A stretch of 64,000 nucleotides of DNA from contig NC_087251.1 of NCBI RefSeq assembly GCF_037042905.1, forward strand, positions 3,226,001 through 3,290,000, given 5' to 3'. This DNA comes from Lytechinus pictus. Taxonomy: Eukaryota. Made by a program: the position numbers and the translations under genes. The notes beneath the pieces were generated by a model. It worked only from the letters and a program-made list of their open reading frames with translations, was not told the DNA's origin and made no database searches. Below, in pieces: positions 35,400 through 56,400 of this stretch; position 1 is the first letter of the stretch; each line of letters begins with the position of its first letter.

Positions 35400-35441
35400 T
35401 CACGCTTGCTTGAATGCTTCTGGTGGAATCTTCCCTTCACT
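35400..35441 (-). CDS. NXF1: NXF1 last coding exon ([13 protein letters not shown])
   Basis: ttttag|, TGA at 35402-35400. Confidence 0.93.
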   Translation of the reverse strand, partial: SEGKIPPEAFKQA

Positions 35442-38400
35442 CTAAAATACAAACAGAAAAGAGAACAGAAATATATTTTTTTAAAGTTGATACAGAAATT
35501 ATTACAACCCATAACAATATATACATTTGTAAGTTCATGTACAAAATGTTCATATACACTGTATCTAACAATCATAATGTATGTATTAGTGACAGAATCA
35601 AAGATTGTATGGTAATTAACTAGCATCACTTTCAAAAACATGATATCAAAATGCAATCTGCTATTCATACTGTTTTTATAATTTACATTACCTTCTTGAT
35701 ATTAAATGTATAAGAATATTTGGTCATGATTTTGTTTATTGCCTAAGCAGTAATGACATTATTGATTGGCTTGTTTGTGGGGGAAACATTAGAAGTATTG
35801 ACAGCGCTAAAACTGCACATTTATTTGACTCATGTAATATGATCTTTACAACTTGGTGAATAAATCTATGTAACCCTCAAGTCCAGTCAATGATATTCCC
35901 ATAAATAGTGCAGATATGATCTTAGCTCATAGGGTGACAATGACAGTGTGAATTGGTTGTTATCTATGTAAACAATCAATGACTAACCTGTAAACTTGTG
36001 AAAACTGTCCCAGATTGTTCATAATTCCAGTTATTCTCTTCTAGACACCTGTGTGTAAAGTAATCGTAAGTAACAAGAAACATGAATAGATGATGACACA
36101 GAGATTACACTCCTAATGAAGAAAATATTCTTAACCATGGGATATAAGAGAACAACATATAATCATGTTTCCTGTGCTATTAACATTCCTCATTATCAAT
36201 TGGCTACACTCTTTCAACATGCCTTTGTTTCTGCTATAGCTATATATCATTTAGTAGGACCAAAACTTTCAAATAGCATTGTAAACAAATACAACACATT
36301 GATATTAATCAACTAGCATAAATGATGTCTTTCAGAAACAAAACCATATGTTACCAATGATAAATCTTATGTTGCACCCAGATGCATCTACCCCTATACA
36401 GCCAAGCAATGCAGAGCAAAATATAATACTAATAATCCATCCCCATCCCTTTAAGAAAACTTACTTCATAGACCAATCAGCATTCATACCAGAGACTCTC
36501 ATGAATTCAGCAAGCATCTGTTGCTGTGTTGGGCCAAGTCCTTGTGGTATTGGTGCTGGCATTGATTGAGGAACGTTGACAGGACTAGTAGATGGTGTAG
36601 GACCAGGGCTAGCAAATGAGCTCTTAAGGTTGGGAAATAAGGATTGGTACAGTGATTAGTCTTGGGAAAGGTAACAATATTGTAAAATATACTGATTTCT
36701 TGAATTACATTCATAATCAATATACAAACTTGCTAATAAAACAAGTGGAGCGCCTCTGGCAGTCTCACCTGCATCGCGCGAAATTCAATAAAGCAGCCGT
36801 GCTGGCTTTGAAAACTACTATAAATAATTATTCACAAAAAACACCATTCATATAATGATACAATACTACGTTCATTGACAATAAATGACATTTGACCTTG
36901 ATCATGCGACCTAAGACTTGTCAGTAATACTTGATTACCCCTATATCCACATTTTACAAACTATATCGATAATCTTTGAAAGTTATAACAGCAATCTAAT
37001 AATAACCTCCAAAATGGCCAAAGTTCAATGACCTTTAATGACCTTTGACTTTGGTCATGTGACCTGAAACTCAAATGGGATGTTCAGTGATACTTGATTA
37101 CTCTTATGTCTAAGTTTCATGAATCAGATCCATAAACTTTCAAAGTTATGATGGTTATTCAACAAATACCCCCAACATGGCCAAAGTTCATTGACCTTAA
37201 ATAACCTTTTACGTTATTCATGTGACCTGAAACTCGGGCAGAATGTTCAGTAATACATGATTAACCATATATCCAAGTTTCATCAACTAGGTCCATATTC
37301 TTTCTAAGTTTTGCTGTCATTTCAAAAACTTAACCTCAGGTTAAGATTTTGATGTTGATTCCCCCAACATGGTCAAAGTTCATTGACCCTAAATGACCTT
37401 TGACCTTGGTCATGTGACCTGAAACTCAGGCAGGATGTTTAGTAATACTTGATTAACCCTATGGCCAAGTTTCATGAACTGGGTCCATAAACTTTCTTAG
37501 TTATGCTGTCATTTCAAAAACTTAACCTTTGGTTAAGATTTGGTGTTGACGCCGCCACCGCCGTCAGAAAAGCGGCGCCTATCGTCTCACTCTGCTTTGC
37601 AGGTGAGACAAAAACTAAGGATAATGCAACTATGTAACTATATAATACAAATTAGAACGATATAACAAAATTATTTCTTAATAGAGGTATGATAATTTCT
37701 TTATTTTGTACTCACATTACTGCATTTATCTAATTTCAATGTACGATTGAAAATAAGGCTCATTAGTATCAAAGTAGAGATTGGCATGAAAATGATTGAC
37801 AACCATTAAAATATCATTATTCCATTCCATTCATGAATGCTGGATATTTTTAGTGTACAATACAAATTACTGCATTAGAAACAGTTGCTTTCTACACTCA
37901 CACTAGGATTTCCCCATGTAGTGATACCCAGCATGCTGTATACATGTCACATAAACATAAATCTCATTGGTTCTATCATTGAGCAATATCACGCAAACTT
38001 AATATCTTTATTTAGCCAATTCACCAAATTTGTTCGAATTAACATCACTTATGTTTGAAATTTATAATTTAAAATCAGTATATGTAATAATGTTCATTCC
38101 AGCAGACCAATGTACTAACTCTCCCATCACATTTACCTTTTGTTGGTTAGTAGCTGGTCTTAGGCAGAGTTGATCATTGATAATACATAGGCCAGTAGTA
38201 GGGTGATGTGAAGCTAAGAATACTCTACTGAATGCAATTACTACCTCGTCGTTGGACTTGCTGGTAACTAAAGACAAATTATACAAATAACATAACTTTG
38301 GAATTCATTCTGTTTTGGGATATCTTCAGTATACTTGAATACAGATATCAGCTCAAATATGAATATATCTATCGTCCAGAATGTTTACATATACCTGGGA

Positions 38401-41400
38401 AAAGAAAATGAATTCCTGTTTTCACAACTTCTGTCACGAGAAACAATAATATAGAATTAAAGATGTATCTAAAGTGATGAGATGTATTTAATGCATACAT
38501 ATTGTATTTATCATATCAGAAACCAACTAGTCATTGCATCATGCTTATTTTTCTACCAGGTGCATATCAACCGTGAGCCTACCTTTAGATACTTTGCCAA
38601 TATTGTTGAAATAAAGAGTATGAGGGACCTAATAATAATACATAAAGTTAAATCGAATGACAGAATGCATCACTGCATCACTAATGAGTTGGTTTTTTTT
38701 TTTTTGGGGGGGGGGTATAAGCAGTGTTCAATAAGGAAAAACGATGAGAAAGATATGGTCATGCATCAATTCTTACCTTCTTTGAAAGTACCACTGACTG
38801 TGAAACATAGTAGATTTCCCTGTAAATGGGAAGAAAATATATATATCTTTAAATAATATGAATTCCTCAGTCTTATATAACACACTGTGTTTTACATGAC
38901 ACCTATATAGATCCTTATTATTTGATTGGTTGTTTGATATCGATCATTCGGCCCATTTTAAAATAACATCATTACCCATGCAATTTTGGATCCAATCATC
39001 GGGCAATTATGGACCCATACGATTTTGTCCATTGCACGCTCGCACCACGACTGCAGGCACCATAAGTAAAACCACTCATGTTCGCAGCGTCAGGGTATGT
39101 ACGCGATAATCAACTCGCACTACATGAGCATATTTTGCATCAACATTCATAATTTTCATATGAAAAAAAAAGAATCTATTGTAGGTGTGATGTAAACCAA
39201 ATAATGAATGTTCTTTTCATTTGTGCCATGGACGCAATACTTCATTCGATGAAGATGAAATGATTGATCATTTCGTCTTGCACCTCATGAAGTATTCTGT
39301 CCATTGCACAAATGAAAAGAACATTCATTATTTGGATAACATTTACAAGTTATTTATACAAGTTTCATTCACATTTGTCCCTAATATATTCTAACTTCAT
39401 GGCTAAACAATTCACTCAGCTTTCAGAATATCTATATTGAAGCCTGATAAACACATGAGTTACTCTCTCATCTCCCTTCAGCATTCAACTTCTATGTTGA
39501 TGAAATCTACCAGGGTCACAAAAATAGCAGTTTAAATGCAACAACAACAAAAATCAAGCGCATGTCCCAAATACACATTTGTAATGATTGAAAATTAAGT
39601 TCTGGTTAATTTTTGGAGTTGCATTTGATTGAAACTCTTTCTGCAATAGCCCCCTGAGGAGATTAGCAAGAAAAATAGTTTATGGAATGGCACTGCTTCA
39701 AGATTGTAAAAGCATAAAAATGGTGTGCCCTGGGAAATAGATCAAGTCTACCGAAAGGAGCACATTTTTTTCAGCTGTTTTCCGAAGAATTCTACATATT
39801 TTGAGAGAGGCAAATAGAAGCTAAAAAAACGGGCCATCAAAGCTGAACTATGCTATACAACATTATAATAGAGTGCCCACCTCCCAAGATTGTGCTATTC
39901 CACAGCAATAAGTATACAGTACCTGTGCCATTGATACATCAATCCTAAGGGAATTCATATCATGTTGAGTGGCTGGTAGATCATGAAGGTAGGCTATGAT
40001 AGGTACTTTCTTCTGCTTTATCAGCTTGTTCCTTTGAGCTAAACAACAATTAACACAGAATATGAAGAATCAAACTTTCATCCCATGCTCTTAGATTAAA
40101 TATGGAAAACTAAAGGCAACCATTATCAAAATAGAATTTAAGCATATGAAAACCATATATTCATCATCAGGTAAAGAAGGTCAAACAAATTAATAATGAA
40201 TCACAAAATACCAAAGGTAAGGACACATCAATGATCCAAGGCATGTTGCACACAAGTTGTGATCAAATGCAATTTGAAGAAATCAAACTCGTATAAAGAA
40301 TGTGAACTTGTCAATGCATGCACTGAATCATCTGTAACAGATCACTAGGATATGATTTAAAGTCATCATTCCTCACTTGTTTCATTACAAATTTCATGCT
40401 TTCTTAGCAGTTGGGTAAAACAAATATATGTACACACTATGATATCACAAATTTTAATTCAAGTCTGACTTTACTTACACAGCCAGATCAGATGAGTACC
40501 CATCAATTTAAGGGATATAGATAGACAAAAGAGTAACATAGTGGAACAACCTTTCTATGAAAATTTATAGGGTGGAGAGGTCTAAGGTTATGAGACTTTC
40601 AGGCACGTTGAACAAATATGTGGGAAGCTGACTGGCCAGATCACATGGCCAACTGATTAAGGTCAGACTGTAATCTCTAGAAATGAAACAGGCACTAACC
40701 TGGGTCCTTTGTAACAAGTAGATTACGGCTTTGATGTTCTCTCAAATAGCGGCTAAGACGTGTCTTCCCTTGGCCAGGCTCCATGTTCAAAGGTATTGAT
40801 AGTGAGAAACTTGACTGTACATAGGGAAAAAATGGAAATCACATAACAGTCATCAATCTAGTAAGTTGCAATATAAGCACAATAGAACTAGTATATATTG
40901 ATATTCATATGGCAAGTTTAAAATTGAAATGAATAAACCGGAAATAATTAGATTTACTAATAAATAGGTTTCATACGAATATAGTGCATATACTGTCCAT
41001 AGCAGTATTACTTGCACTCTAAGACATGGCATTTAAACATGAACTAAAATCTGGAGATGGGCTTCTACAACCTTCTGTAATGATGATGTATGTATGAAAG
41101 TAAAATCTACAAACCTAAATTTCATTAAACCTAACTTTGTGAAAAGCATAGCAAAGAATGTTAGATTTATCTTTAGGGGTCAATCAATTATTATGCTGTC
41201 CCACCAGGCATTCATTGACCTGCTTCTGATATTTTTTGACGAAACGGGTGATGACTCAACACTTTGATGTGATGTTTACAAGCATTACATAACTGCTATC
41301 GGTTATATAACTAGAAGCAATAATGAACAGTCTAATAGTCTCAAATTCCCCATGAAGTCAGACAAAAGAGAATTTTTAACGCACAAATAATTAAAGTTGA

Positions 41401-44400
41401 TAATAATAGGCCACATGGTCTTATTTTACCTGATCATGATAGATTTCAAGTAGTGGTTGTCTGTCCCGGGAATCATATACTTTGAAGAACCTTTGAGATA
41501 CACAAACATAAAGAATAGCCTAGATAATACAATATACTTCATCAAAACAAATTCATAGCAATAAGAAATATATGCTGTTCTTGTAAAGCACATACATAAC
41601 ACATTACGGGTTAATATATTTTTGCAATTCCTTAGAACTTTTGGATGATATAACTCTCACTTCAGCTTGGGTAACCTTAGATATAAGAAGGCTCCAAATG
41701 TTTTAATGACTCTTACTACACTCTAAAATCACTAAAACACTAGAATTTATATATTAAAACCTGAATAAAAAACAGGAATAAAACAAGAATACTTAATTAC
41801 AGAAAATAGTTAATATTTTGCATTTTAGAATAAAATATTGAATACCTTTCCAAGAATGGAACCAAGATTGCTTTGACTTTGTCCCCTGCAAAGAAGTTTG
41901 GTTGCATAGTGGGTAATGGAGCAGTGTCTTCCAGGTCAAAGTTGATAGGAGGGGGTAGTGTGCTTCCATCCTGTTTACAAACAAAGAATAGGAATGGTTT
42001 GAAATCATTCTCCTTTACACTGTATACTTCAAAACCTATACACTGAAATAGCACCCCCCCCCCCTTTACTACATGAACTGAATAAATGCATATGTAAATA
42101 ATTAAATAAATAATTAAATAAATAAATAAATGAATAAATAAATAAGTAAACAAATAAATAAATATATAAATAAATGAAAATGAATAAATTGACAAATAAA
42201 CAGAAATAAACAATTCACTAATCAATAAACAAAGTAACAACGAATGCTACTAAATGACCAACTAACAGAATTAATCTCATTAGATTTCATTCAATGGTGT
42301 GTACAAACTTTAAGTTTGGAGTATTAATACATGTTCTCATTATTCAAGAAAGTTTCATAAGATATGAAGCTAAACTCCATGAGTTGACCAGAAACAGAAA
42401 AAAATACTGTTGGGTCTATTGTATTTACATAAGTCTCCATATCAAAATTTATTTAAATACCATTTACCTTTGACCATGAAATCAACATATAAGAGGTTCA
42501 CCCTCTTCTCATGAAGTAAAAATGACATTGATAACAATCTACTCACCAAGATCTCTACCTTGGGAAATCTTGATCGAACAGCGCTGAAAAAAAAGAAAAA
42601 AATTAGGATCAGCTTCTGCAATAGCAACTAGATAGTATACTAAAGTACCCTTTGCAAATTCGAGTAATTTTTTATTAGAATTTGAACATTACCATATAAC
42701 ACACACTCTTGAGCAGATTTAATAAAGTTGCGATTGGGATGGAAACGGGTGATTTCAAGTTCAGTGTTGGTGGCGACGTTCACAATTCAGATTGCCTTCC
42801 CTAGCTCCATTAACTAATGTGAGTTTACCAAGATGATCCAAATCACACTGATAGCTCAACAATCACTAAGAAGAGTCCTAGAACCAGCTTCAATTGAAGC
42901 TTTGTGTTGTGTTTATATAAAAATTTGACCCAACAACGAACTTGAAATCACTCAATAACTGATTTACTTGATATTTACCCAGTCTGCTAAAACACAAAAC
43001 TTTATGCCTAGTGATTGATTTGAATGAGATAAAAGTATGTTACGATACATTTTGTACCATGTAAGACTGATATAAAGAAAGCAATATGATCAGTATTTCT
43101 ATTATTGTGAAAGAGAGACAGAAGAAACAAGAAACCTCATGAAAGTTGCAGAATATTATCAAACAGGTTGTAACAAGTAAAGATTCTGAATGATTCTCCA
43201 CAAACAATTCCATTCCTCAAATATTTAAGAAAATCACAGGACTACTGCAGCTCATATGAAAAGTACACTCTATATGAACTTGAAAGCAAAGCAGCAAAGT
43301 GATGTTGACTGTAGGTGGTATGTCCAGTGATCAAAAGGGCTCAATGATGGCAATAAAGAAACTTACCTCCATACTCACTGAATGGTTGTAGATAACACAA
43401 ACTCAGATCTAAATGTTTATGTTAAAATTTAGTTTCCCTTTTTTTCTACCAGGTTATTAAACTTCATATTGTTGACACTTAGAATTCCCAGAGCAGAAAA
43501 ATATATGAGGGACTTGCTAAATGGAGTGCCATGTATTCAAGGCCAGCTTGAGCATGAATTCATATATTAACGAAAAAATTGGCGCAAATTCTCGGACTGT
43601 CCCAGACGCTTTGCTTCTGGAGAAAGTATTTCCAATTTATCTTTCCAGAGAGTCTATGAATTGAACAAATTTGTACAAACCCTGATTTATACTTATTTTC
43701 TTTAACATTAATTTTATATTATATACCAACAAACAGAGATGAATGAAATGGAAAGGACTGGGTTACAAAAGCAGACATAACATAAGAGCAAATAGGTATG
43801 AAGTGAGCACATCAAATACCAGTGAAATGAAAAATCAAGGATGAAAATAGTGTCAAATTTTCATGACCTTTTCCAGTTGATACAAAGCATACCGAGTACA
43901 ACAATGCCAAACATGCCCTATCCAAAGCTTAGACTTGAATGGATATGATGTGAAGTGCCCATTTTGGGCTATTTGCTCTCATAATTTCTTTTTTTTTCTT
44001 CAGAGCAATGGGTTTGGAAACCTTATACTGTAGATATTTCTCATACTTCAGGTACAAAGATCAAGATGATGTTTAATTCATCTGTGTAGTCGTGCGTGTT
44101 TGAGCTACTTCTTCAGTGAGGAGCAGAGGTGTAACGATGGCAAGCCCCCGTTTGAGCATCTGTCTTAGGTTGCCCTCTTACAATGAGGATCTTACCCGTC
44201 ATGGACGCTCTAAACAGTCGGGACCCGCAGTGACTATTGTCACATGATGAGGTGGTTCCTGGATCTTCATCTGTTGGTTCTCTTTAAGTTGTGCCTTTGA
44301 TGCATTCCAAGAATCTTGAAGATACCAGTAGAGTGACTTCTGTTGTAATGATAATAACTTCACACTCATACTTGCATCAGGTTGATATATCAGGAAAACT

Positions 44401-47400
44401 TGTGCCAACATCTTCTCAAGACATGGAGAAATGCATCCATTGCATAGATGAATCACCAAATTTGTAAGGTAATAACTGAAAGCAGCTTCTTTTCATCTTT
44501 ACATTCCTTCAACTTGTTTTTGCTGATTTTCATCTGTATCTCAACAGAAGACTTACAGAATCATTATGAATATGAGCAAAGTTTGGCAATGTATACTAAA
44601 TAGCAAATATACTCCTGGTTTTCTATTTATTTCATTGGGAAGATTATCATAGCCTGGTATTTGAAAGAGTTCACTCCATTCTAAAACAGATTTTACAAAG
44701 GAGTTGGAAGGAAGAAATGATAACATAAATAGGATAAAGAAAGAAGAAAAAACACAGCACTACATATACCACAGGATGAAATAGTGCTAGATGATATGCA
44801 ATTTCCAAATCAAAATCCTTTGAAGATCATTGAGCAAATAGTTTAATGGTCTCTTTATGTTTGTATATGACATGAAAATTATATTTATCATGAGGGGAAA
44901 AAAATGAAAACCAATTAGATAAATAAAGCCCTGTTTTCATTCTCTGATTTTCACAGATACCCTACCTCTCAGAAATGGTAATTCTTCAAAGGGAAGATGA
45001 AAAAAAAGAAGATATTTTCATCAAGTGACAGAACATTCAATGGAAAGAGAAGATACAATGTAGGTAGGTAATGTCAGCTGGAATCAATTATCTATTCACC
45101 AAAAGAGAAAAAGGAAAACAAAATGACCATAGACTAGCAAGTAGTCAGTAGGGAGCTTTACTACACTTAGAGCAGATAGGCACTAAAACACACTGTACGT
45201 GCAAGGGATACATTTTGTCAAAGCAAACAATGTATACACTGTAAATTCACCAAGACATGCCAGTATCTTATGTGAAAGAGAAGAGAACATTAGAATACAT
45301 TGAGGATTAAACAACTTTGATTGGCTCAAATGAATGGCATGGTGCAAGGTACAAAGGACTCGAAACCAACAACATTCCTATTTCTCTTAGGATGAAAACC
45401 AAGGGCACTGCCATATCAAGCAAACCCTATTGGTAGCATCTCAGGACCAGATGACATCTTGTTGCTTGGTAACAAGATGCTATCCTCCTGGAACCAACCT
45501 CCAGCTTGGAACCCTCTGGAATCATTCAGCCATACCTGATATATGTTGATTGTTCTCTGAAGTTATCACATAGAGGGTTACCATCGAGAGTCAACTCCTT
45601 TAGCTTGAGTCCTTTCAGATTGTCTAGCTCTCCTTCAGATCTCAACTATTATACACATACAAATTACAAACATATACAAAAAAATATGGTTTGATTGTAT
45701 TCCTTTCTGGCAATTTCTCATTCGTGTATTTGATTGTACATGTCTAGTTACAACACTTGATACTTTTGTACAACATTGCACCCCCCCCCCCTCTCAAATT
45801 TTCCTGCAGTGCTCTGATTTCTATTCATATGATCAAAACATAAGAGTTTCCATGATCAAGAATAGGATTTGAAAATGATCAAAAAACCAAGAAATTTGAT
45901 TTTGATTTGATTTTATAGCATTTACTCCATTCATCATAAAAAACAGAACAAAACATGATACATTCACCTTTACAAAAACTACACAATTACGTAATAACTC
46001 TTTTTAACATTCACTCCAATGGAGTATATGTATAAATGATATATGAAAATATAAAAATGTACTTACATTGTTACGTGCCAGGCTGAGTGTTGTGATATTT
46101 GGCATCTTTAGCGGTAGATCAGACATGCTCTTTAGATTGTATAGTTTGTTAGCATCAAGTTGAAGCATTGTCATCTAGAAAATAAATTTAAAAGATAACT
46201 TAGTCATTTTAGTCCAAACTGCAGTATAATGGTATCTAAATATAAATACTCAATTTAATGCTTTTTTTGAAAGGGCAGAATAGTTAAGTCAAGCAAAAAA
46301 AAGATACCTATTATAGGAATGTATTGTATTTTATACATAACAGATAAGAGCTAATGAAATGTGAAAAAGTATTCTGCCAAGAACTGTCAAAAGAAGAAAC
46401 TCTGTGGAATGAGTGTCTTAGTGGGAAAATGTGGCACTGTTTTATTTGGAAATATATATATTTCTATATTTTAGAAATTGGGGGTTATGGGACTCCAATT
46501 CCTTTATCATCAAGTAGAACGAGGAGAATAAATCGAAAATCAATTTTGAAAAGAATCACTTGCTTCCTTTTGTAAGTGGACAGAAGTATTATCATTAGTT
46601 ATAAATCTATTACAAAATACCACACAACAGTAATGATACTGCTTCCTTGACCTACATGAGAAAAGATTCTGCCAAAAAAAATTGGTAAATATGTTTTCAA
46701 AAAAGATAAACATCTTACTAGGCCTGGGACTTTCGGGTATTTTTGTTTTCGGGTACCCGTGGCAATTTTCGGGCGGGTACCCGAAATTCATGTCGCATGA
46801 AATATGACTGGTGGAAAAATCCCACAGGTGACGTCATCCAGCCACTGCGCCGCAAGCAAACTTATGAATGAAAATATAGTAAGCATGCGCAGTGCAAGCC
46901 TCCCGTGCCCCACGCAGTATTCCATCAAAACAAGTCTGCAATACTCTGTCACCTCGTACCAAAATCGACCTAGAATTCCACTTTCCTTTATTTGATATTA
47001 ATTATGAAAGGTATTCTCAGAGGATCTGTTTTCTTACCGATATCACACAGGTAAGCAAATTTTGATTACTTCTTGCTTTCCCGTCAAAATCTTACGAAGT
47101 AGCGTCGATATTACATCGTGTTCGTGAGTTTGTAGAATCTATCACTACATGCACAAAGTCAATTGATTTCCGGGTAGTTTCGGAGCGCCGAATGCGCCAG
47201 CAAATCACGATCGGGTTACCATAAGGTATATCGCTAATCAGAACCGCAATGCATCACGGGATCGAAAGGGGGGCCGTTAGCTAGCTCTGCACGTGCGCAG
47301 AGCTAGCTAACGGCCCCGTTTTCGATCCCATGATGCATTGCGATTCTGATTAGCGATAAACCTTATTTTCGGTTTATGATGAACTGAAAATGGTAACACG

Positions 47401-50400
47401 AACGTGGTTGGCTGGCACTTCGTATGCTAAAGCTGCAATTAAGAAACATGGCGACGATCGAACGATCTCAGTCACATCATCACTTGAAAAACTTGTATAC
47501 TTTTGTGGGCAATGAGTTACAATCATGTCTTACACTATGCACTACGCAAATACGTTATTGGTAAGCAATTTTCGGGTATCGGGTATTGATTTTTCTACCC
47601 GGGTACCAAAGGCTTCCGGGCGGGACCCGGGTTTTAGTCCCAGCCCTACATCTTACAACTATTTCAAGAACACAAATGAAGAACAGTAAGAGGAAATTTT
47701 TTTTTTTTTTAATTACCTCTGGAATGTTTTCAGTAATTATTTTAAGGATTGCAGCAAAGTGGGCTGGTCTTTCTACAATGAGGAACAGCTTTCCTTTCAA
47801 ATCTGTTTAAAAAAAAAATAATGCAGTATATCAATTATCTTTTTACAACATTCAGATTAACTAGAAGCAGAGAATTCAATGTCAAATAAATTTACTTGAA
47901 AAAAAAACCCTCCACAAACATCCAAATTTGGTGAAAGAGGGAGCTCTATACAGCTCTGCTACGTCTCATTGACTTGAGCATTTTTCTTTTACCTCATGCA
48001 AAATCTCATACCATTGCACTCATGTCTTTTCGCTATTTGTATACCATCTGGACCCAGGAACATAACAGATAACAATCAACTGCTCAACATATTATAAATC
48101 AACTGCAAATTACAACTGTATCTCTTCATATTACATAGTCCTGGATGGGGATTAACATTACTACTCACCAGCATCATTTGTCAGATTCCCAAGGTCTAGT
48201 GATTTGGCAGAAGGATCATAACGTCTGCTCATAACTTGTTTGAGTAGATCAAGATCTTTATCATTAAACACTGATTTCATGGGTGGTCTGCATGGACGAG
48301 TCTGAATGATGATCTGTGGGGAATTACACAGAATGTTACACTTTGTGTGATTGTCTTTTTTTTTCATAAAAGAAATCAAGTAAACAATTTAAGTGATTAC
48401 AAGATGAATTTCTTAGAACTGATGATGAATATTGATCATCTATTTACTTCACTCCTTCTTTTCACTTCATAGCAACAAGATCATGTTGATTTTACAGCTC
48501 AAAGAAAGGGAGACCAGACTTCAATTCTGATCTATTCATGGCATATCACTTATCAAATATAACCCTTTTGAAGAACTTTTAACAAAGAGCTAAACCTGAT
48601 TTAAGATCATGCCTTAGAGCCATCATGGACATGTTATTTAAGCACACAATCTCACTGCTGACTTGTCAATAGTGGAAAGCCCTAAGCTGAATCTGGTTAA
48701 TGTGATGTGTTTTATCCTGCAAGCAATTCACCCTGTACTCTTTATAAAACACCCCAAGAGCTTGTTAAAATTGAACTCAAGAATCATCTTTCCAAAATAA
48801 TATAATTAATTCAGGGAAATCTGCTTAAGACACTGCTTCTACTGGGCACAAATGAAACTTCTTCTCTAAAAATAGGTTTCAGAATTACACTCTCTATAGT
48901 CCAGACCCATTCACGACTTCTCTGAGAAAGATGGTTTTGTGACATTTTACACAGACTAAATACTTTGTGTTGCATTTTTTACATATATACACACCAACAG
49001 GTGGGGGTTAATATTTTTTGTATTACCACTGTTTATTCTTTTTCTTTAACTCTGACTGATTCTGTTATTTCAAAATTACATATTTTTAGAATCAAATGAC
49101 AATTTAGAGGGTCAAATTTGCAACTTTTTGAAAGTCACTTGTATTTTATACAGTTAGAGGGTAAATTTGCCCTTTGTCCCACTGTCTTTTAAAGAGTTTT
49201 AGGAGCTTCCAATCCATGTTCCCAAGAAAGAAAGCATACTGCATAATAGGTGATTTCAAGGTTGGTATTGACATTGGAAGCACAATTCAGATTGCCTGCT
49301 TGCAATACCTACAAGTAGTCTGAGCTTACAAATAATTATTATTAATGACTCAAAACCTAGTGAGATTGGTCCCAGGACCAACTTCTTTTAAACTTTGGTA
49401 AAAATGTAAAAATCAAGCTCACGCAACACCAAAATGTCAACAACAAGCTTGAAATCACCAAATCTTCACAGACATTTGAAGCAGTACTTATTACATAAAC
49501 ATTCTATTCTCTAGATTACCTTGTATCCACTTGGTGTTGTTATTCTGGTGCTAACATCTTTCAAAGCTTCACCAGTAGCTAAATCGTCCACATAAAAGAT
49601 TGCATTCTGATTATCATAAGTAAACTAAAATAGGAGTAAAAATACAGAAAATAATGAAAGAATGAGATTGTTTTCAAATCAATTTAACATATAATAATAA
49701 TAATAATACAGGGTGTTTATATATTGTGCACATATTCAGCTTGCTCAAGGCGCTCCTTTATGTTGACAGAATACACAATATGTTAATACCTCTTATAATA
49801 ACATGCTTCAGCATTATGAGATAAATTAGGTACTAAACTAATGTTAAGTAAATAAGGCTGTCAAATTTTTTTCATCTGCAATTTTATGAAACATCATCAT
49901 AAAAGTGAGTAGATTGCCATGATTGAAAGACAACGAGTCATAACAAGTCATGACAAAGTAATCATAGGGGAAAATACTTAATTCAATAAGTTAAAACTTT
50001 AATTTCAAAAACAAAAATGAAAGAAACCATACCTATCATTTGTATAGACCATTTACCAGTATAGCAAAAAAGAAAGTAAGAAAAAGCATTTGGATACAGC
50101 ATATAACGGCCTGAGGTATAGATAAACATGAAAATCCTTTATTCTTGACTGTTGATTAGCATTACCTCTTGTGGTATAAAAGGTTCTTTACAAGCACCTT
50201 GGATAGTCTTGATGAGCCATTCCTTTTCACTCTTCTTCCCATATGGTATCTGGTAAGAAAATGAAACAATTAAGCCTGAGTCGAATCGATTTTAAAATCG
50301 GTGTTCGATCGATGTCATCGAACGCCGGTGCAGATTTTGCAAAATCGGTGGATAGAAAAAAAATAAAAATACGTCGGCCGGCCGATTCATTTGGTTAACA

Positions 50401-53400
50401 CAATCAAACATCAAAATAAACAGTAATATCCAACTTGACTACTACTTACTTAATTTATATTGCCCCCAAAATGAAACCGATTGTGTGTAAATATGATGCC
50501 TATTCCCCATTAATTTGAAGTTTTTTTCGGTCATAGTTCGAGTCTTACTCGTCTACCCGGCTCGTCTGCTCGTGCTGAGATAAATTTAGGCACGATGAAT
50601 TTATGAATGGAAGTCGCCATTGATCGTGCTTTAATCAAATCAGAAAATGGCCGGAAAATTGACGCGATCAACGTAAAATAAATCTTGCTTTCATGAACAA
50701 TATTAATATGACAATAGAACATGATTTAATCGTAATATTTAACAATAGGCCTAATTAGCATATGATAATCATTCATATGAATTTAGAGCTTGATGTGAAA
50801 CGTTTGTATTTCGTTTCAATTTTCAATGGCGGACATCACATGACGATCGACTTGAGCGAGTGCACTTGTCTAAAAAATAATTATCACGTCAGGATCGATT
50901 CTCGAACATTTTCAACATGTAGAAACTCTTTTGAAGATTGTAATATCACCATATAATAACATTTTACATGACAAAACAGAGAAAAATTGCGTTTGATATT
51001 TTTTCCCATCAATTTGAAGCTAGTTTGTGCCAATTTTTGGGCTCTGATTTCATGAACGGAAAATATGTCAGACGTCATCGACCGCGCATGCGCATTGTGC
51101 TTCTTTTCTCGGAGCTCGGAGACGTCCAGAGATGGAATAAAAATAAAAATAATGCCAGTATAATACTATTAATTCTTCTAATGAACATAACATATACTTT
51201 GCTGACATCGTCAATATTTTTAGTATGGCCATAAAAATCTTATCGTAATTATTTAACATCCAATAATAATTTATATGAATTTAGAGCTCGATCCGAGACA
51301 TTCGTATTTATTTCGATCACAAGCTCTTGTGTCTAAAATAAAAAATGGATTATCATTATCAGGAATAATTTTCGAACATCGTCATAACTCATATTCCACA
51401 ATCTTTCCTCACAATCGTTATGTCAGCATTGAATACCAATTCAAATGATCATCCAGAGAAAATTACATATTTATTCCCATCTATTTATTTGGAGCTATTT
51501 TTTTTTCCAACTACTCCGCCAACTACACAATCTCAGGCAAGTTACAGGGCTCTCCCCGCTGTTTGCACTTGTTAGATGGCGCTGGCAAGCGTGCATGTCG
51601 TTTCGGGAGAGTGAGTGTACGGGGCGCGCCGCGTACGGGGCTAGCTGCGGACGGGGCTGGTGTGTGCGAGGCTGGACTGCGAATGCTAGCTGACCGAAAA
51701 TCATTCGGATCGACTCTGCGTGATTCATGTCTTTAATATTGTTTCATTTTAAACTTATATTTTATCATCTGCAAATAACATTGTTGAGGATATTTTGGGA
51801 AGAATCCTGCATTGCTCCCCTGCATTGCTCCCCGGCCTTTTTCGTGTTTTGTGATCATGGAAAATATGAACGAACTTTGCTCTGTCATCTGCTTTTGCAA
51901 CGCTCACCCGGCCATCCAGAGCAGACCGTCAGGGCGTCAGTGCATGTAGTGCATGCATAGTGCATCGACGGCCGGCCGGCCGGAGCAAAAAAATTTCCAC
52001 GCCTTAAACATTCGATGCATCGATGTTCGATCGAATTAAAGCTGTCGAACACCGGTTTTCAAAATAATCGATATGACTCAGGCTTAGAAACAATGATTCT
52101 AAATATAATTTTGATACTTAAATAATAAAATGCATATAACTATAAGATTCCAAGCCATTGGGTAACATGTTGTGATTAGCACTGACCTACCTACATAAAT
52201 GTATTGATCATAAAAAAGCAACAAAAAAAGAACCCAAAAAATTGTATTAAAGAGCACCACTATTTGTCTAAAAACAAAGAAATAAATGAGAAAGGAAACT
52301 AGAATTTTTCTGACAAAGTTGTTAGAAATATTGCTGATTATCTAGGATTCTTTCAAGTCTTGGCCTTGAACATCATTTATCCATGACCATGTTCTTTTAT
52401 TGACTGGCTGCATCTCCTAATTATCTTTCCTTTTGTGTTTTTCAACCAGTAATTTATTCATGTCAATTTTTGTTCCACTTCATTTCATTTTCATCTTATA
52501 CAAAGAGTTATTATTCATATAGAAAAAAAATTACAATATATAGACCCCTAGACATGAATTTTCAAAGAATGCGTTATTTCCATATTCAGAAACATCAATT
52601 TAATATGGGAGCCCCTCTAAAAACAGCCAGATTATCTCATTATGTCCAACAGAGTACAAAAAGCATACTTACAGTAATTTTACACCATGTTTCGTCATCC
52701 CTTCCACTATGCCTAGAACCATCCTTAAATGGTAAACCTAGTCTTGACATAGAGCTTTGTGATGAACCTCCTCTTCTATCATTGTTCTGTGATCTCCTCT
52801 GGTTTGCTCCAGATTTACGGTTTCCATATGGATTACTGAAGGAGGTAAATATCACATTTAATATTCAGATAAATAACTCACTATCACAATATACATTTAT
52901 TTTCTTCCAACGATTCAGTTTGGAAGGATAACATTCTCTGAATATTTCTGCTACTGATGTACAAAAATTATCAAGAAGGTAAAGGAAGACACAAACAAAC
53001 AAATATTTTAATTAGTTACCAACTTTCTAAAGATGCTGAAACTAAGATTTAATTTATTATTGTCACTCTTTAACGTCATTGATTTTTCTCTTCAAAAATT
53101 AAACACAGTAATTAAGAGACAGAGGTATATTTTAGTTTCAAAATATTTAAAATAAATAGAACTTACAATCTCGAATTTGCTTTTGGATTGTCTCCATCAT
53201 CCATCGATACATCATCATCTTCTAATCTTGACCTTGGATGAACTTGGTCTGAATCCCTATTATTCATTCCTCCTCCAGCTCCATCCCCTCGATGACCTCC
53301 TCCTCCTCCTCCTCCTCTCCTTTTATCTCTTCTACCACCTCCACGACCTCCTCTCCATTTTCCTCCACCACCACTTCCTCCACCTCCACTGTTACCACTT

Positions 53401-56400
53401 GTTTGTCCACCACCTCTACCCCTTCCCCTTCCTCTATAACCACCATCTCTGTCATTATATCTGTCATAGTCATTGCGTCCTTGTCCTCTGAAGTTATCAT
53501 TTCGGTCATATCTGTCACTCTGATCCCAGTCATTTCTGTTTCCTCCTCCTCGTCCCCCGCCTCTTCCTCCTCCTCCTCCTCCTCCTCCTCCTCTTCCTCC
53601 ACCTCCCCCTCCTCTTCCTCCACCTCGCCAGTGGCCACTTGGTGTTTCTCGAGTGCGATCATCATGTCCTGCAAGTATTCATTGAAAACAAGTGATAAAA
53701 AGGTCAGAGCTAATTCATGATCATATTCCAAACAATGTTTCAATTCACCAAGTCTTTGGAATTTTTTTTCCGGAGAAAAGAAACACCCCAAAACATGAAC
53801 TAGTTCAAAATCAATTACTCTACAGCTTATTCTTGGATTATCCCTTGGCACAAAATACATACCGTAAGAATGAAAAATTATGGTTAGTCTCTGCCATCTC
53901 AACATAATCTACCATAAAAAATGATTAAAAACTCCTCCAAACAGACTAATTTCTGCTGTCTAAGTTAACCCGCTGCATAGTTCGGAAATAAGACACAGAT
54001 TCATCACTTAATTTTAATGACAAAATTTTGCTTTTTGGAGGGTGTTTTGGAGTTTGGGCTTTTCTGTGCATTGGACTGTCATGTGAGTAGATTTTCTTGT
54101 GTTCGGTGTATGTCGTATATTTGACCATGTGACTGCAATCCACTCTTGAGTAAACATATCAAAAAGTCTTCAGCAGAGTGGGAAATCCATGCAGCACTAA
54201 ATCCACCCCCTGTACCAACCACACATTCCTAGCCAGGAGGCTTCTTGAGAGTAAAAATCATTTACTAACGTATGTTTACTCTCAATGAAGCCAGGGATTC
54301 CTTCTTATTCATCTGCGTGTACTGCCAAAAAACCTGAAACTTTCGCCCCCGAGATTTCTACTTTCCTAGTTCTAAAACATCTAGCCATAAATCATGTACA
54401 TGGGATAAAACTTTATTTCCGACATTTCTACGCTCTCGGTTTTATTTTTAAACAAGAATTCATTTTAAAAATGAGAAAAATATTGTGAAAAGACGGAAGA
54501 GACTTGCCCGATGTTTACGCCGCCATCTTGTTTCCTATTGTACTTCCCCAACGTTGAATTCTTGTTTAAAAATAAAACCGAGAGCGTAGAAATGTCGGAA
54601 ATGAAGTTTTATCCCATGTAAGCTACGCACTTTGTTTACAAACGATAAAAACTATGCCAATTTTAATATTCTAACAAATCATCTTTCACAAATTTGTGTT
54701 AAATATTGTAAAGATTCATAACCAAAAAGAAAATATCACAAAACTCACTAATACGAAAATCCCGCTGTGTTTTCCGAACACCTCTTGATTTCGCCGCCCG
54801 ACATAGAAGGGGTCCTTAAGCTACGCACTCAATTTATCATGCAAAGAAAAATAATTTCCTGTACCTAAACTTCTAAATAATGTTCATATTCTTATAGAAA
54901 AATATGAAATCAAAGTGAATATAACTCAAAAATTCCAAACAGTTGCTGGTTTTCTCTGTATTTAGCGATTTATTGCAGCCTCTGTAGAAAAAAAGTGAAA
55001 GGAATCGTCCGTCACACTGCAGAGTGCGCATTTTGCAATTGAAATTGCATGCGCATTGGAGTGGTGCGTAGCTTTAGGACCCCCTACCATACATGATTTA
55101 TGGCTAGATGTTTTAGAAGGAAAGTAGAAATCTCAGGGGCGAAAGTTTCAGGTTTTTTGGCGGTACATGCAGATGAATAGGAAGGAATCCCTGGCTTCAT
55201 TGAGAGTAAGCATACGTTAGTAAATGATTTTTACTCTCAAGAAGCCTCCTGGCTACACATTCCCTAGCCGGTTAATAGTTTCGGTTGATAGTTTTAAGAA
55301 AAGTTTAAGCAAAATTCAAATGTCTACTTTCATCCGGGGGGGGGGGGGGGGGGGGCACATCATCATGAATTCAAAATCAAATTCATCACTAGCCACACAT
55401 GCCTGCAGCAATCATATCCCAATTGAGGAGTTTGTCCGCAGTAACAGGAAGAAGCAGAAGAAGCCCTCCATTTTACATACCGTAAGAGCACTAGTATTCA
55501 ACCCGTTTGGAGAGTTTCCTCAAATATATAGACAAGGCTCGACATTAGCGGTGGCCCGGTGGCCCAGGGCCACCAAAAATTCACCTCGGGCAACCATTAT
55601 TGATAAAATGTTAAGTTTTGGTGGCCCGAATCGGGCAACCAATAATTTTCAAAGTAGCGCAATTTTTCTCCCAATTTTGCACGCATTTATCAACTTTCTA
55701 CAGCTCAAGTTGCAAGCCAGTTCGTCATGCGCCCTTTTTGTTGATCTACACACAAATACACACACACAAAGTTTGCATATTAGGCCTACAGCTACAGCAT
55801 AGAGTAGCTATTATCCAGCCAGACGCGCCGGCCGGCTGGCATGAGCTTTGCATGAAGCCACTGCATACAGCTGTGCTCTAGATCTAGCTCAGCCTATTCA
55901 GACTCGGGGAGCTGCGATAAAAAATGTTGCTGCTGAGAAATCTTCCACAGAACTTTGAAAATCTAAGTCAAAGTCACATTTTACACCAATGAAATGCAAT
56001 TCTACAGTCTATATTACGAAAATCTGGTGTACCCTGATTATTTGCAAGTATTAAGAAGAGGAATTATGACCTCTCTTTTGACTAAAAAAGACCGATTTCC
56101 ACATGAATTAATACACATAAAAACACATAGGCAAGTACATCACAGTCCCACGTGTGCATTTGTATGTATGTTGATACTTGGTTTCTTTCGAAGCTGTGTA
56201 TTTTCTAGCCAAAAACAAACAGACAGTTTCTTTCTTTCTTGTTTATAAATGACTTCTTAAACCACTCTTGAGAAAGTAAATACTTTGGGAAGGCATTTCA
56301 TTGATATGAAATGTGATTTTTTTTCCAACATTTTGGCAAACATAGGGAAGGACTTTTCTCACACTTTTTTCCAGATATAATTTTTGCCGTTTTCTTATTT

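Follow-up and report, generated by a model that had tools for sequence, protein, structure and literature searches.

A probable cellular CTE in an intron of the sea urchin NXF1 gene

Mammalian NXF1 reportedly harbours a cellular constitutive transport element (CTE) in its intron 10, a finding attributed to Li et al. in 2006. The mammalian element forms one internal loop, lies in sense orientation, closer to the 5' splice site than to the 3' one, and carries a 5'-splice-site-like GGUAAG beside the loop; retention of the intron leads to an early stop, so that a short protein is made which stops behind the LRR domain. The human form of this protein, sNxf1, comprises 356 amino acids, 18 of them coded by the intron (PMC5170612). 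Wang, Rekosh and Hammarskjold (2015, PMC4338338) report cellular CTEs from mammals, zebrafish and coelacanth only, and note that vertebrate CTEs lie nearer the 5' splice site than the 3' and that a conserved 5'-splice-site-like sequence adjoins their loop (Discussion). By the text of that paper, the zebrafish and coelacanth elements, the most distant cellular CTEs in the papers we found, occupy the same NXF1 intron with the same predicted core structure, and the zebrafish one is functional with zebrafish Nxf1/Nxt. BLAST searches for the CTE were negative in birds and reptiles, which makes the vertebrate distribution patchy, as well as in C. elegans and Drosophila (PMC4338338). The Drosophila orthologue sbr (Dm nxf1) nevertheless produces an abundant intron-retaining transcript (PMC8151460); an earlier note on the present DNA had cited Drosophila nxf1 as intron-containing without a recognised CTE. 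Monkey retroviruses of the MPMV/SRV type, like vertebrate NXF1, employ the CTE for the export of unspliced RNA. The retroviral CTEs, found downstream of env near the 3' end of the contig, differ in having two loops, formed by long-range pairing of tandem units.

The element described here is a candidate recognised from sequence in the NXF1 gene of a sea urchin. It resembles the mammalian CTE in gene, intron position, number of internal loops, orientation, placement nearer the 5' splice site, the adjoining GGUAAG and the predicted outcome of retention. The host, however, is an echinoderm, and the likeness is one of position and architecture rather than of alignment with the human CTE sequence. 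With the MPMV/SRV-type elements it shares identical 13-mers on both loop strands and the same motif of loop, 4-bp helix and bulge, but it forms one loop in a local hairpin within a cellular intron. It also sets the urchin apart from Drosophila and C. elegans, where BLAST found no CTE homology (PMC4338338), since the urchin carries the canonical motif.

The NXF1 gene and its element-bearing intron

The window, that is, the whole 64-kb stretch of DNA analysed, contains the following parts of the gene.

35403..58557, (-) strand: NXF1 gene, 19 coding exons, located by tblastn with P0001 (nr: nuclear RNA export factor 1-like, Lytechinus pictus)
45536..45645, (-) strand: coding exon 9, end of the LRR domain (...QSTYI and two bases of the next codon), with 5' splice site CAG|GTATGG
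42584..45535, (-) strand: element-bearing intron of 2952 nt, with GT..AG ends, confirmed by spliced reads
45526..45528, (-) strand: in-frame TGA met on intron retention, from translation
42547..42583, (-) strand: 37-nt microexon 3' of the element-bearing intron, from tblastn, with joints seen in RNA
41844..41969, (-) strand: coding exon 11 (DGSTLPPP...FLER), where the NTF2-like part begins, from tblastn, translation and RNA joints

The earlier note had assigned the gene to NXF1 and the DNA to an apparent invertebrate, and both assignments are borne out. In addition to the tblastn result, a PDB search with the urchin protein matched human NXF1 at E 8.5e-140, and its RRM-LRR region, roughly residues 236-482, aligns with the TAP fragment crystallised with the CTE (3rw6_A, E 1.3e-67). 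The spliced translation of exons 9-11 is identical to the L. pictus NXF1-like protein in nr, which identifies the source as a sea urchin; the mismatches in the remaining exons fall at HSP ends overrunning splice sites. NXF1 appears to be single-copy at the sensitivity used, all 14 genome matches being exons of one gene.

The joint that removes the intron (42583->45536) is supported by 15 spliced reads in dataset X21 and by one contig in dataset X1. The last residue before the intron, I458, is matched in the alignment to chain residue 227 of 6e5u_A; this corresponds to human I338 if the chain end, 508, is taken as residue 619. Because it begins after this residue, the intron is orthologous to human NXF1 intron 10, as the earlier note had proposed. 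Translation of a transcript retaining it gives residues 1-458 followed by R-Y-G, with a stop after three intron codons, against 18 intron-coded residues in human sNxf1. The urchin gene also departs from the mammalian one downstream, where the exon is split by an extra intron that leaves the microexon. The element itself is in sense orientation and starts 1334 nt into the intron.

Sequence and fold of the element

Within the intron we distinguish the following features.

44131..44243, (-) strand: extended stem-loop, in the limits of the earlier note; MFE fold -42.6 kcal/mol, z -3.72
44154..44210, (-) strand: CTE core, consisting of lower stem, internal loop, GGGU/ACCU helix, AAGA bulge and apical hairpin, from sequence, fold and covariance model
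44198..44203, (-) strand: internal loop, 5' strand CAUGAC, from sequence and fold
44161..44166, (-) strand: internal loop, 3' strand AAGACA, from sequence and fold; invariant in 19/19 comparison elements
44190..44197, (-) strand: GGGUAAGA, the 5' arm of the 4-bp helix and the bulge, resembling a 5' splice site (GGUAAG)
44173..44189, (-) strand: apical hairpin UCCUC-AUUGUAA-GAGGG, from the fold; its letters differ from those of two metagenome elements (L015, L020) and of the viral units, with pairing kept

The sequence, pairings and 6x6 internal loop described in the earlier note were all recovered. On the (-) strand, the two 13-mers are ATGACGGGTAAGA (44202-44190) and CAACCTAAGACAG (44172-44160). 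The lower stem pairs GAGCGUC (44210-44204) with GAUGCUC (44160-44154), the 4-bp helix GGGU (44197-44194) with ACCU (44170-44167), and the apical stem UCCUC (44189-44185) with GAGGG (44177-44173). CAUGAC and AAGACA are left unpaired, so that the CTE feature of an AAGACA strand opposite an xAUGAC strand in an internal loop is present. The MFE fold of 44131-44243 gives this structure, and none of 200 shuffles folded as well; the 68-nt core folded alone is weaker (z -2.03), 8 of 200 shuffles being equally good.

A covariance model (R1) built from 19 CTE-type elements, with the window excluded, recognised the element from these other members alone. Scanning both strands of the 64 kb, it gave a sole match at 44147-44214 (-), with 49.6 bits (rough E 9.5e-15) and 13 of 13 model pairs standard; this score falls inside the range of the members (44-73 bits). 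Rfam 15 gave no match in the window at gathering thresholds, and only chance-level matches in 43800-44600 with E up to 10.

The splice-site-like letters beside the loop suggest a different role, in which the element would be mainly a splicing device: GGGUAAGA would act as a decoy or regulated 5' splice site recruiting U1 snRNP, splicing would be held back or the intron-containing RNA stabilised, and NXF1 binding would be secondary or absent in urchins. GGUAAG does lie within the invariant part, being invariant or nearly so in 19 of 19 comparison elements, and U1 binding is raised as a possibility for the vertebrate CTE by Wang et al. (PMC4338338). However, a splicing role leaves unexplained the invariant AAGACA strand, the ACCU arm and the maintained hairpin architecture; GGGU is moreover base-paired in the fold, and none of the RNA joints listed uses the GGUAAG site. 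We consider this explanation unlikely.

Relatives of the element and its singularity in the genome

The earlier note had matched the 13-mers to the repeat unit of a retroviral CTE. Both indeed occur exactly in contig L003, the 5' half in unit A and the 3' half in unit B. This is one of three contigs (L002-L004, 8.1-8.6 kb) in which the tandem element, matched exactly by the two 13-mers, sits between env and the 3' end, and which are retroviral, since the ORF upstream of the element matches Env and syncytin chains in PDB (4jf3_A, E 2.8e-58). When L003 is folded, the two halves are opposed in the outer internal loop, with the same dot-bracket motif as in the window. Elements of the two-unit type were also found in 10 metagenome contigs.

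Two further metagenome contigs, L015 and L020, hold single-unit elements that fold independently to the architecture of the urchin element. Their loop and bulge letters equal those of the window, while the lower and apical stems differ; the GGGU/ACCU helix, the AAGA bulge (GGUAAG) and the closing helix are common to the window, L015, L020 and the outer loop of L003. L015 and L020 may represent additional lineages of this element; when urchin NXF1 served as tblastn query, neither showed an exon match in the surrounding 600 nt. A scan of prokaryote genome contigs returned two candidates. L022 is a contig of 45.6% GC with flanks common to endogenous-retrovirus-like loci, and L023, located in a 92-kb bacterial contig, has the lowest R1 score (26.9 bits) and no CTE fold, and was taken as a chance match.

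Counting pairs over 23 distinct elements, we found 69.2% of cells paired against 69.1% when shuffled, that is, no covariation beyond shuffles, and covariation of the 4-bp helix was never seen across the 23. Such a null result is expected if the retroviral units pair across units, and it means that covariation rests on the three single-unit sequences (window, L015 and L020), whose stems differ in letters yet pair.

Genome-wide searches in the 812-Mb assembly used mismatch patterns, the covariance-model scan covering the 64-kb window. A pattern of 24 bases with up to three mismatches gave 7 matches, as against 7 for the control, and the NXF1 site was the only genome match with fewer than three mismatches; a looser 18-base pattern gave one match against none for the reversed control. 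The 1.6 kb surrounding the element is single-copy in the genome, and a Pfam search of the 34 intron ORFs of at least 40 aa found no match. The uniqueness of the element, its single-copy flanks and the Pfam result together indicate that it is neither a repeat nor a visible retroelement remnant.

These observations bear on whether the urchin lineage could have acquired the element independently, by retroelement insertion or by convergence on an NXF1 binding site, instead of inheriting it from a deuterostome ancestor. CTE-type elements do travel with retroviruses, endogenous ones included, as the three viral contigs, the 10 two-unit-type metagenome contigs and L022 illustrate, and the patchy vertebrate distribution (PMC4338338) would fit such a history. 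Against it, the intron, orientation and one-loop form are all as in vertebrate NXF1, and a random sense insertion into a 3-kb intron of an 812-Mb genome would be expected in only about 2 of every million events. The flanks hold no repeat, LTR or retroelement ORF, the genome has no second copy, and 26 of 26 letters of the two 13-mers equal the retroviral ones. Independent acquisition thus appears very improbable to us. Chance resemblance without function, for which only the modest z of the core fold speaks, is effectively refuted, the earlier note having judged it very unlikely: the two 13-mers at their own spacing, even with up to three mismatches allowed, have a single match in the window, whereas none of 100 shuffles contains one, R1 gives an E of about 1e-14, and the single site in 812 Mb is located in NXF1 and in the orthologous intron.

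The intron in RNA, and a proposed function

RNA evidence on retention of the intron is mixed. X1, from the same species, has contigs over the intron at a depth of 15.8-28 in 10 of 12 full bins; 43595-44351, where the element lies, is among the regions covered. X1 also contains spliced contigs, and for the two short introns nearby the depths are 0, 0 and 3.2, 0.9. The intron contigs extend just 28 letters into the flanking exons, the bridging threshold being 31 letters, and the start of intron 7 (46254-46667, unique-looking) is likewise covered at a depth of 9-18, so that coverage in X1 is not exclusive to the element-bearing intron. X15 comes from a related urchin (organism B). One of its contigs, 2467 nt long, has the downstream intron spliced out (skipping 576) and then includes some 880 nt from the 3' part of the element-bearing intron; a further contig covers 43993-44333. 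Organism B shared 8 of 20 sampled words, which is compatible with evenly spread differences. X1 and X15 are guessed to be RNA datasets, on the strength of their spliced contigs. X21, a raw rRNA-depleted RNA dataset from the same species (about 6% of the run), has no reads in intron bins 42942-45425 against 15 spliced, at exon depths of about 2-10, which implies that this sample has little or no retention. When the 56-aa frame spanning the element was compared with a protein database, in order to find transcripts of other species, there was no match.

The earlier note's reading of the element as a cellular CTE holds as regards the urchin host, the NXF1 gene, the intron position, the one-loop architecture and recognition by the model. 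We think it likely that this is a cellular one-loop CTE, homologous to the vertebrate intron-10 CTE and to the loops of MPMV/SRV-type elements, and propose that it serves a self-export mechanism. Some NXF1 transcripts would keep the 2952-nt intron, in which the fold would expose the AAGACA/CAUGAC loop, together with the GGGUAAGA bulge, to the NXF1 RRM-LRR module (with NXT1). NXF1 would then export the intron-containing mRNA without an adaptor, and its translation in the cytoplasm would yield a short NXF1 of residues 1-458 plus three intron-coded residues. The predicted protein has the N-terminal RGG region, the RRM and the LRR, and lacks both the NTF2-like domain and the UBA domain. The export receptor would thereby control an isoform of itself. 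That NXF1 binds and exports the RNA, that the short form is translated and that autoregulation results is inferred here from the vertebrate and retroviral systems.

As to origin, a self-regulating intron device in NXF1 probably predates the vertebrates. It seems likely to us that the NXF1-CTE loop goes back to the deuterostome ancestor and possibly further, that its 26-letter contact surface has been kept letter-perfect since the echinoderm-chordate split while the stems drifted and compensated, and that retroviral CTEs are captures from hosts. We found no report of an invertebrate CTE in the literature searched, subscription journals and papers of the Mamon group outside PMC excepted; since the cellular CTEs in the papers found are from vertebrates only, an urchin CTE would extend the documented range.

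With an orthologous urchin element, the origin of direct, adaptor-free RNA recognition by the general receptor for mRNA export would antedate the echinoderm-chordate split, and so would that of the control by NXF1 of its own intron-retaining isoform. The element would separate the constrained letters, found in the loops, 4-bp helix and bulge, from those of the lower and apical stems, which are free to covary, and it would strengthen the case for a host origin of the retroviral CTE. The sea urchin also offers a genetically tractable invertebrate embryo, in which deletion of the element could probe the purpose of the short NXF1 isoform.

The host gene and its element-bearing intron

One minus-strand exon matches, at 98%, the nr entry 'nuclear RNA export factor 1-like [Lytechinus pictus]' and, at 77%, NXF1 of S. 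purpuratus. Human NXF1 structures can be aligned to the urchin protein across its RRM, LRR, NTF2-like and UBA domains (6e5u_A, E 8.5e-140). These matches bear out the earlier note's choice of NXF1 as host gene. By tblastn, 19 coding exons of the L. pictus NXF1-like protein run from 58557 to 35403 on the minus strand. Judged by sequence, the source is L. pictus or a very close relative, because the spliced translation of exons 9-11 equals the L. pictus protein and tblastn mismatches sit at alignment ends overrunning splice sites; what had been called an apparent invertebrate is a sea urchin, an invertebrate deuterostome. No NXF1 paralogue was seen genome-wide at E 1e-5, since all 14 protein matches are exons of this single gene. 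The urchin protein has 754 residues versus 619 in human, the extra length being accounted for by a long glycine/arginine-rich (RGG-type) N-terminal region in exon 2 (53170-53669, minus). Spliced reads and translation define the features around the element:

ends at 45536, minus: exon 9, ending ...QSTYI plus two bases, donor CAG/GTATGG
45535-42584, minus: element-bearing intron, 2952 nt
42583-42547, minus: microexon, 37 nt
downstream of the microexon, minus: next intron (urchin intron 10), 576 nt

Is this intron the counterpart of the one that carries the vertebrate CTE, as had been claimed? Urchin I458 falls opposite residue 227 of the 6e5u_A chain, which ends at 508; if chain residue 508 equals residue 619, the stated human Nxf1 length, as we assumed, I458 would be human I338. 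According to PMC5170612, human sNxf1 has 356 residues, 18 of them intron-coded, and human exon 10 therefore ends at residue 338. The claim thus holds on this alignment, by which the urchin intron is positionally orthologous to human NXF1 intron 10. The element begins 1334 nt into the 2952 nt, closer to the 5' splice site, and vertebrate CTEs are likewise described as closer to the 5' than to the 3' splice site (PMC4338338). A retained intron would read R-Y-G, then stop at 45528-45526.

Intron 7 of the same gene holds a very high-copy repeat (46668-47702; summed DNA-contig depth up to 60,549 versus about 20 in the flanks) that includes an inverted repeat of 70 nt (47221-47290 and 47297-47366) with 93% complementarity. 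Two overlapping ORFs scanned in it gave no Pfam match, and the repeat probably belongs to the MITE-like or foldback elements.

Sequence, fold and copy number of the element

Read 5' to 3' on the minus strand, the core (44210-44154) consists of:

5' end of 44210-44154, minus: lower stem, 5' arm GAGCGUC
after GAGCGUC, minus: loop strand CAUGAC
after CAUGAC, minus: helix arm GGGU
after GGGU, minus: bulge AAGA
after the AAGA bulge, minus: apical hairpin UCCUC-AUUGUAA-GAGGG, then CA
after CA, minus: helix arm ACCU
after ACCU, minus: loop strand AAGACA
3' end of 44210-44154, minus: lower stem, 3' arm GAUGCUC

The two 13-mers that the earlier note placed at 44202-44190 and 44172-44160 are exact in the sequence, and its proposed structure was recovered, with an even longer lower stem, by folding 44131-44243 (-42.6 kcal/mol, z -3.72; none of 200 shuffles as stable). 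Folded alone, the 68-nt core scored z -2.03, and 8 of 200 shuffles did equally well. With up to three mismatches allowed, both 13-mers at element spacing have a single match in the window, and 100 shuffles gave none. In the species' own 812-Mb assembly, an 18-base version matched once (reversed control, none) and a 24-base version with up to three mismatches seven times versus seven in the control, the NXF1 site alone having fewer than three. The observation is genuine, and chance is ruled out by a wide margin.

The element's 113 nt and the surrounding 1.6 kb are single-copy in the genome. The element is not a visible retroelement remnant, because none of the 34 intron ORFs of at least 40 amino acids had a Pfam match and no second copy was found in the 812-Mb assembly.

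Retroviral and metagenome relatives

A window-derived pattern matched three viral contigs, 8126-8557 nt long, all of which have two tandem units near the 3' end (in L004, only the first unit matches exactly). The ORF immediately upstream in the retroviral locus L008 is an Env (4jf3_A, E 2.8e-58; also syncytins), and from contig size, layout and this match we infer that the contigs are MPMV/SRV. The earlier note's match of the 13-mers to a retroviral CTE unit is supported: in retroviral contig L003, unit A contains the 5' 13-mer without a mismatch, and unit B likewise the 3' 13-mer. The fold of L003:366-536 pairs the 5' half of unit A with the 3' half of unit B, forming an outer internal loop with the same dot-bracket motif as the window (stem, six unpaired, four base pairs, two unpaired, one base pair, one unpaired, stem). 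The urchin element thus shares exact 13-mers and loop motif with the MPMV/SRV-type CTE, whereas the latter has two tandem units and a loop paired across them.

One metagenome scan gave 12 loci, ten with a two-unit retroviral or endogenous-retrovirus layout and two with single units. The ten contigs with this retrovirus-like layout (L010-L014, L016-L019, L021), together with L022 (1488-1554 of a 2.2-kb contig, 45.6% GC, filed under a Pseudomonas-type genome, with flanks common to L011, L012 and L017), are probably animal endogenous-retrovirus DNA carried in microbial data. The single units, L015:557-626 (-) and L020:588-655 (+), lie on contigs of 40-42% GC, with no NXF1 exon within 600 nt of either. 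Each has its own closing hairpin and folds independently to the window architecture, with the loop, helix and bulge letters of the urchin element and different stems. Because they differ mutually by more than seven changes, the figure given for human versus zebrafish CTE cores in PMC4338338, one or both may represent an unsampled lineage or a paralogue.

With the window left out, a covariance model of 19 viral and metagenome elements has a single match in the 64 kb, at 44147-44214 (-), with 49.6 bits (rough E 9.5e-15) and all model pairs standard; CTE family members score 44-73 bits. Local-structure pairing over 23 distinct elements showed no statistical covariation (69.2% of cells paired versus 69.1% in shuffles). 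The 4-bp helix is invariant, and local pairing is 62.5% in the lower and 50% in the apical helix, low values that are consistent with pairing between retroviral units. Among the three single-unit elements (window, L015, L020), the 26 letters of the 13-mers are identical except for the first loop-strand letter, C in the window and A in the other two. Their stems differ with pairing kept: at the second position of the lower stem, for instance, the urchin has U-A where L015 and L020 have C-G, and the apical stems read UCCUC/GAGGG (urchin), CUGCUU/GGAGCAG-type (L015) and UUUUCC/GGAGAA (L020). Such changes lend support of a qualitative kind.

Mixed evidence on intron retention, and a CTE family member in an echinoderm

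Runs were aligned to 41700-47900. Own-species, raw rRNA-depleted RNA (X21, about 6% of the run read) gave 15 reads across the spliced joint 42583->45536 and exon depths of about 2-10, versus no reads in intron bins 42942-45425. A further 11-13 reads match only the 35-nt intron piece 42738-42772, are loose at both ends and carry a fixed C>T (position 42746). This pattern suggests a short stretch in common with a transcript of other origin rather than intron retention. Depth in own-species contigs (X1), taken as RNA because of their spliced joints, is 15.8-25.6 in the element-bearing intron, where the contigs also span the element (43595-44351), and 88 at the spliced joint. The overlap of contigs 44586-45565 and 42558-43030 with the flanking exon is 28 letters in each case, short of the 31-letter bridging rule. 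Depth is 0 in both full bins of urchin intron 10 and 3.2 and 0.9 in intron 8; the start of intron 7 stands at 9-18, so that coverage is not exclusive to the element-bearing intron. In a related urchin, a 2467-nt contig (X15) is spliced at urchin intron 10 and runs through the microexon about 880 nt into the element-bearing intron, and 43993-44333 and 45064-45397 are covered by further contigs. Some samples therefore support retention, whereas in one (X21) it is absent or rare. DNA of this related urchin (X18) covers 43895-44606, where 40 letters are different and 30 are gaps. Of 20 words sampled from 44060-44320, the related urchin has 8, which alone is no proof of a conserved block.

P0002, a predicted 310-residue Logan-derived protein from another urchin-like transcript contig, begins MCFFF, followed by 11 residues not given here (compared with window 42547-42627). 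Its first residues correspond to the pyrimidine tract of the CTE intron, directly upstream of the microexon, and its RNA contig therefore starts inside the element-bearing intron and is spliced downstream.

Wang, Rekosh and Hammarskjold (2015; PMC4338338) reported CTEs from over 30 mammalian species as well as from zebrafish and coelacanth, with negative BLAST results for birds, reptiles, C. elegans and Drosophila. The paper favours a host origin for the viral CTE and points out a conserved 5'-splice-site-like sequence. A Drosophila paper of 2021 (PMC8151460) still presents the NXF1-intron transcript interaction as something established in vertebrates. The literature searched, with most subscription journals outside its coverage, contained nothing relevant on a CTE in sea urchins or other invertebrates.

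Its sequence, fold, profile score, host gene, intron and orientation all mark the element as an echinoderm member of the NXF1/MPMV CTE family. By analogy, the vertebrate mechanism most likely applies: NXF1/NXT1 would bind the element's loop and export the intron-retaining NXF1 mRNA, from which a short NXF1 would be translated.
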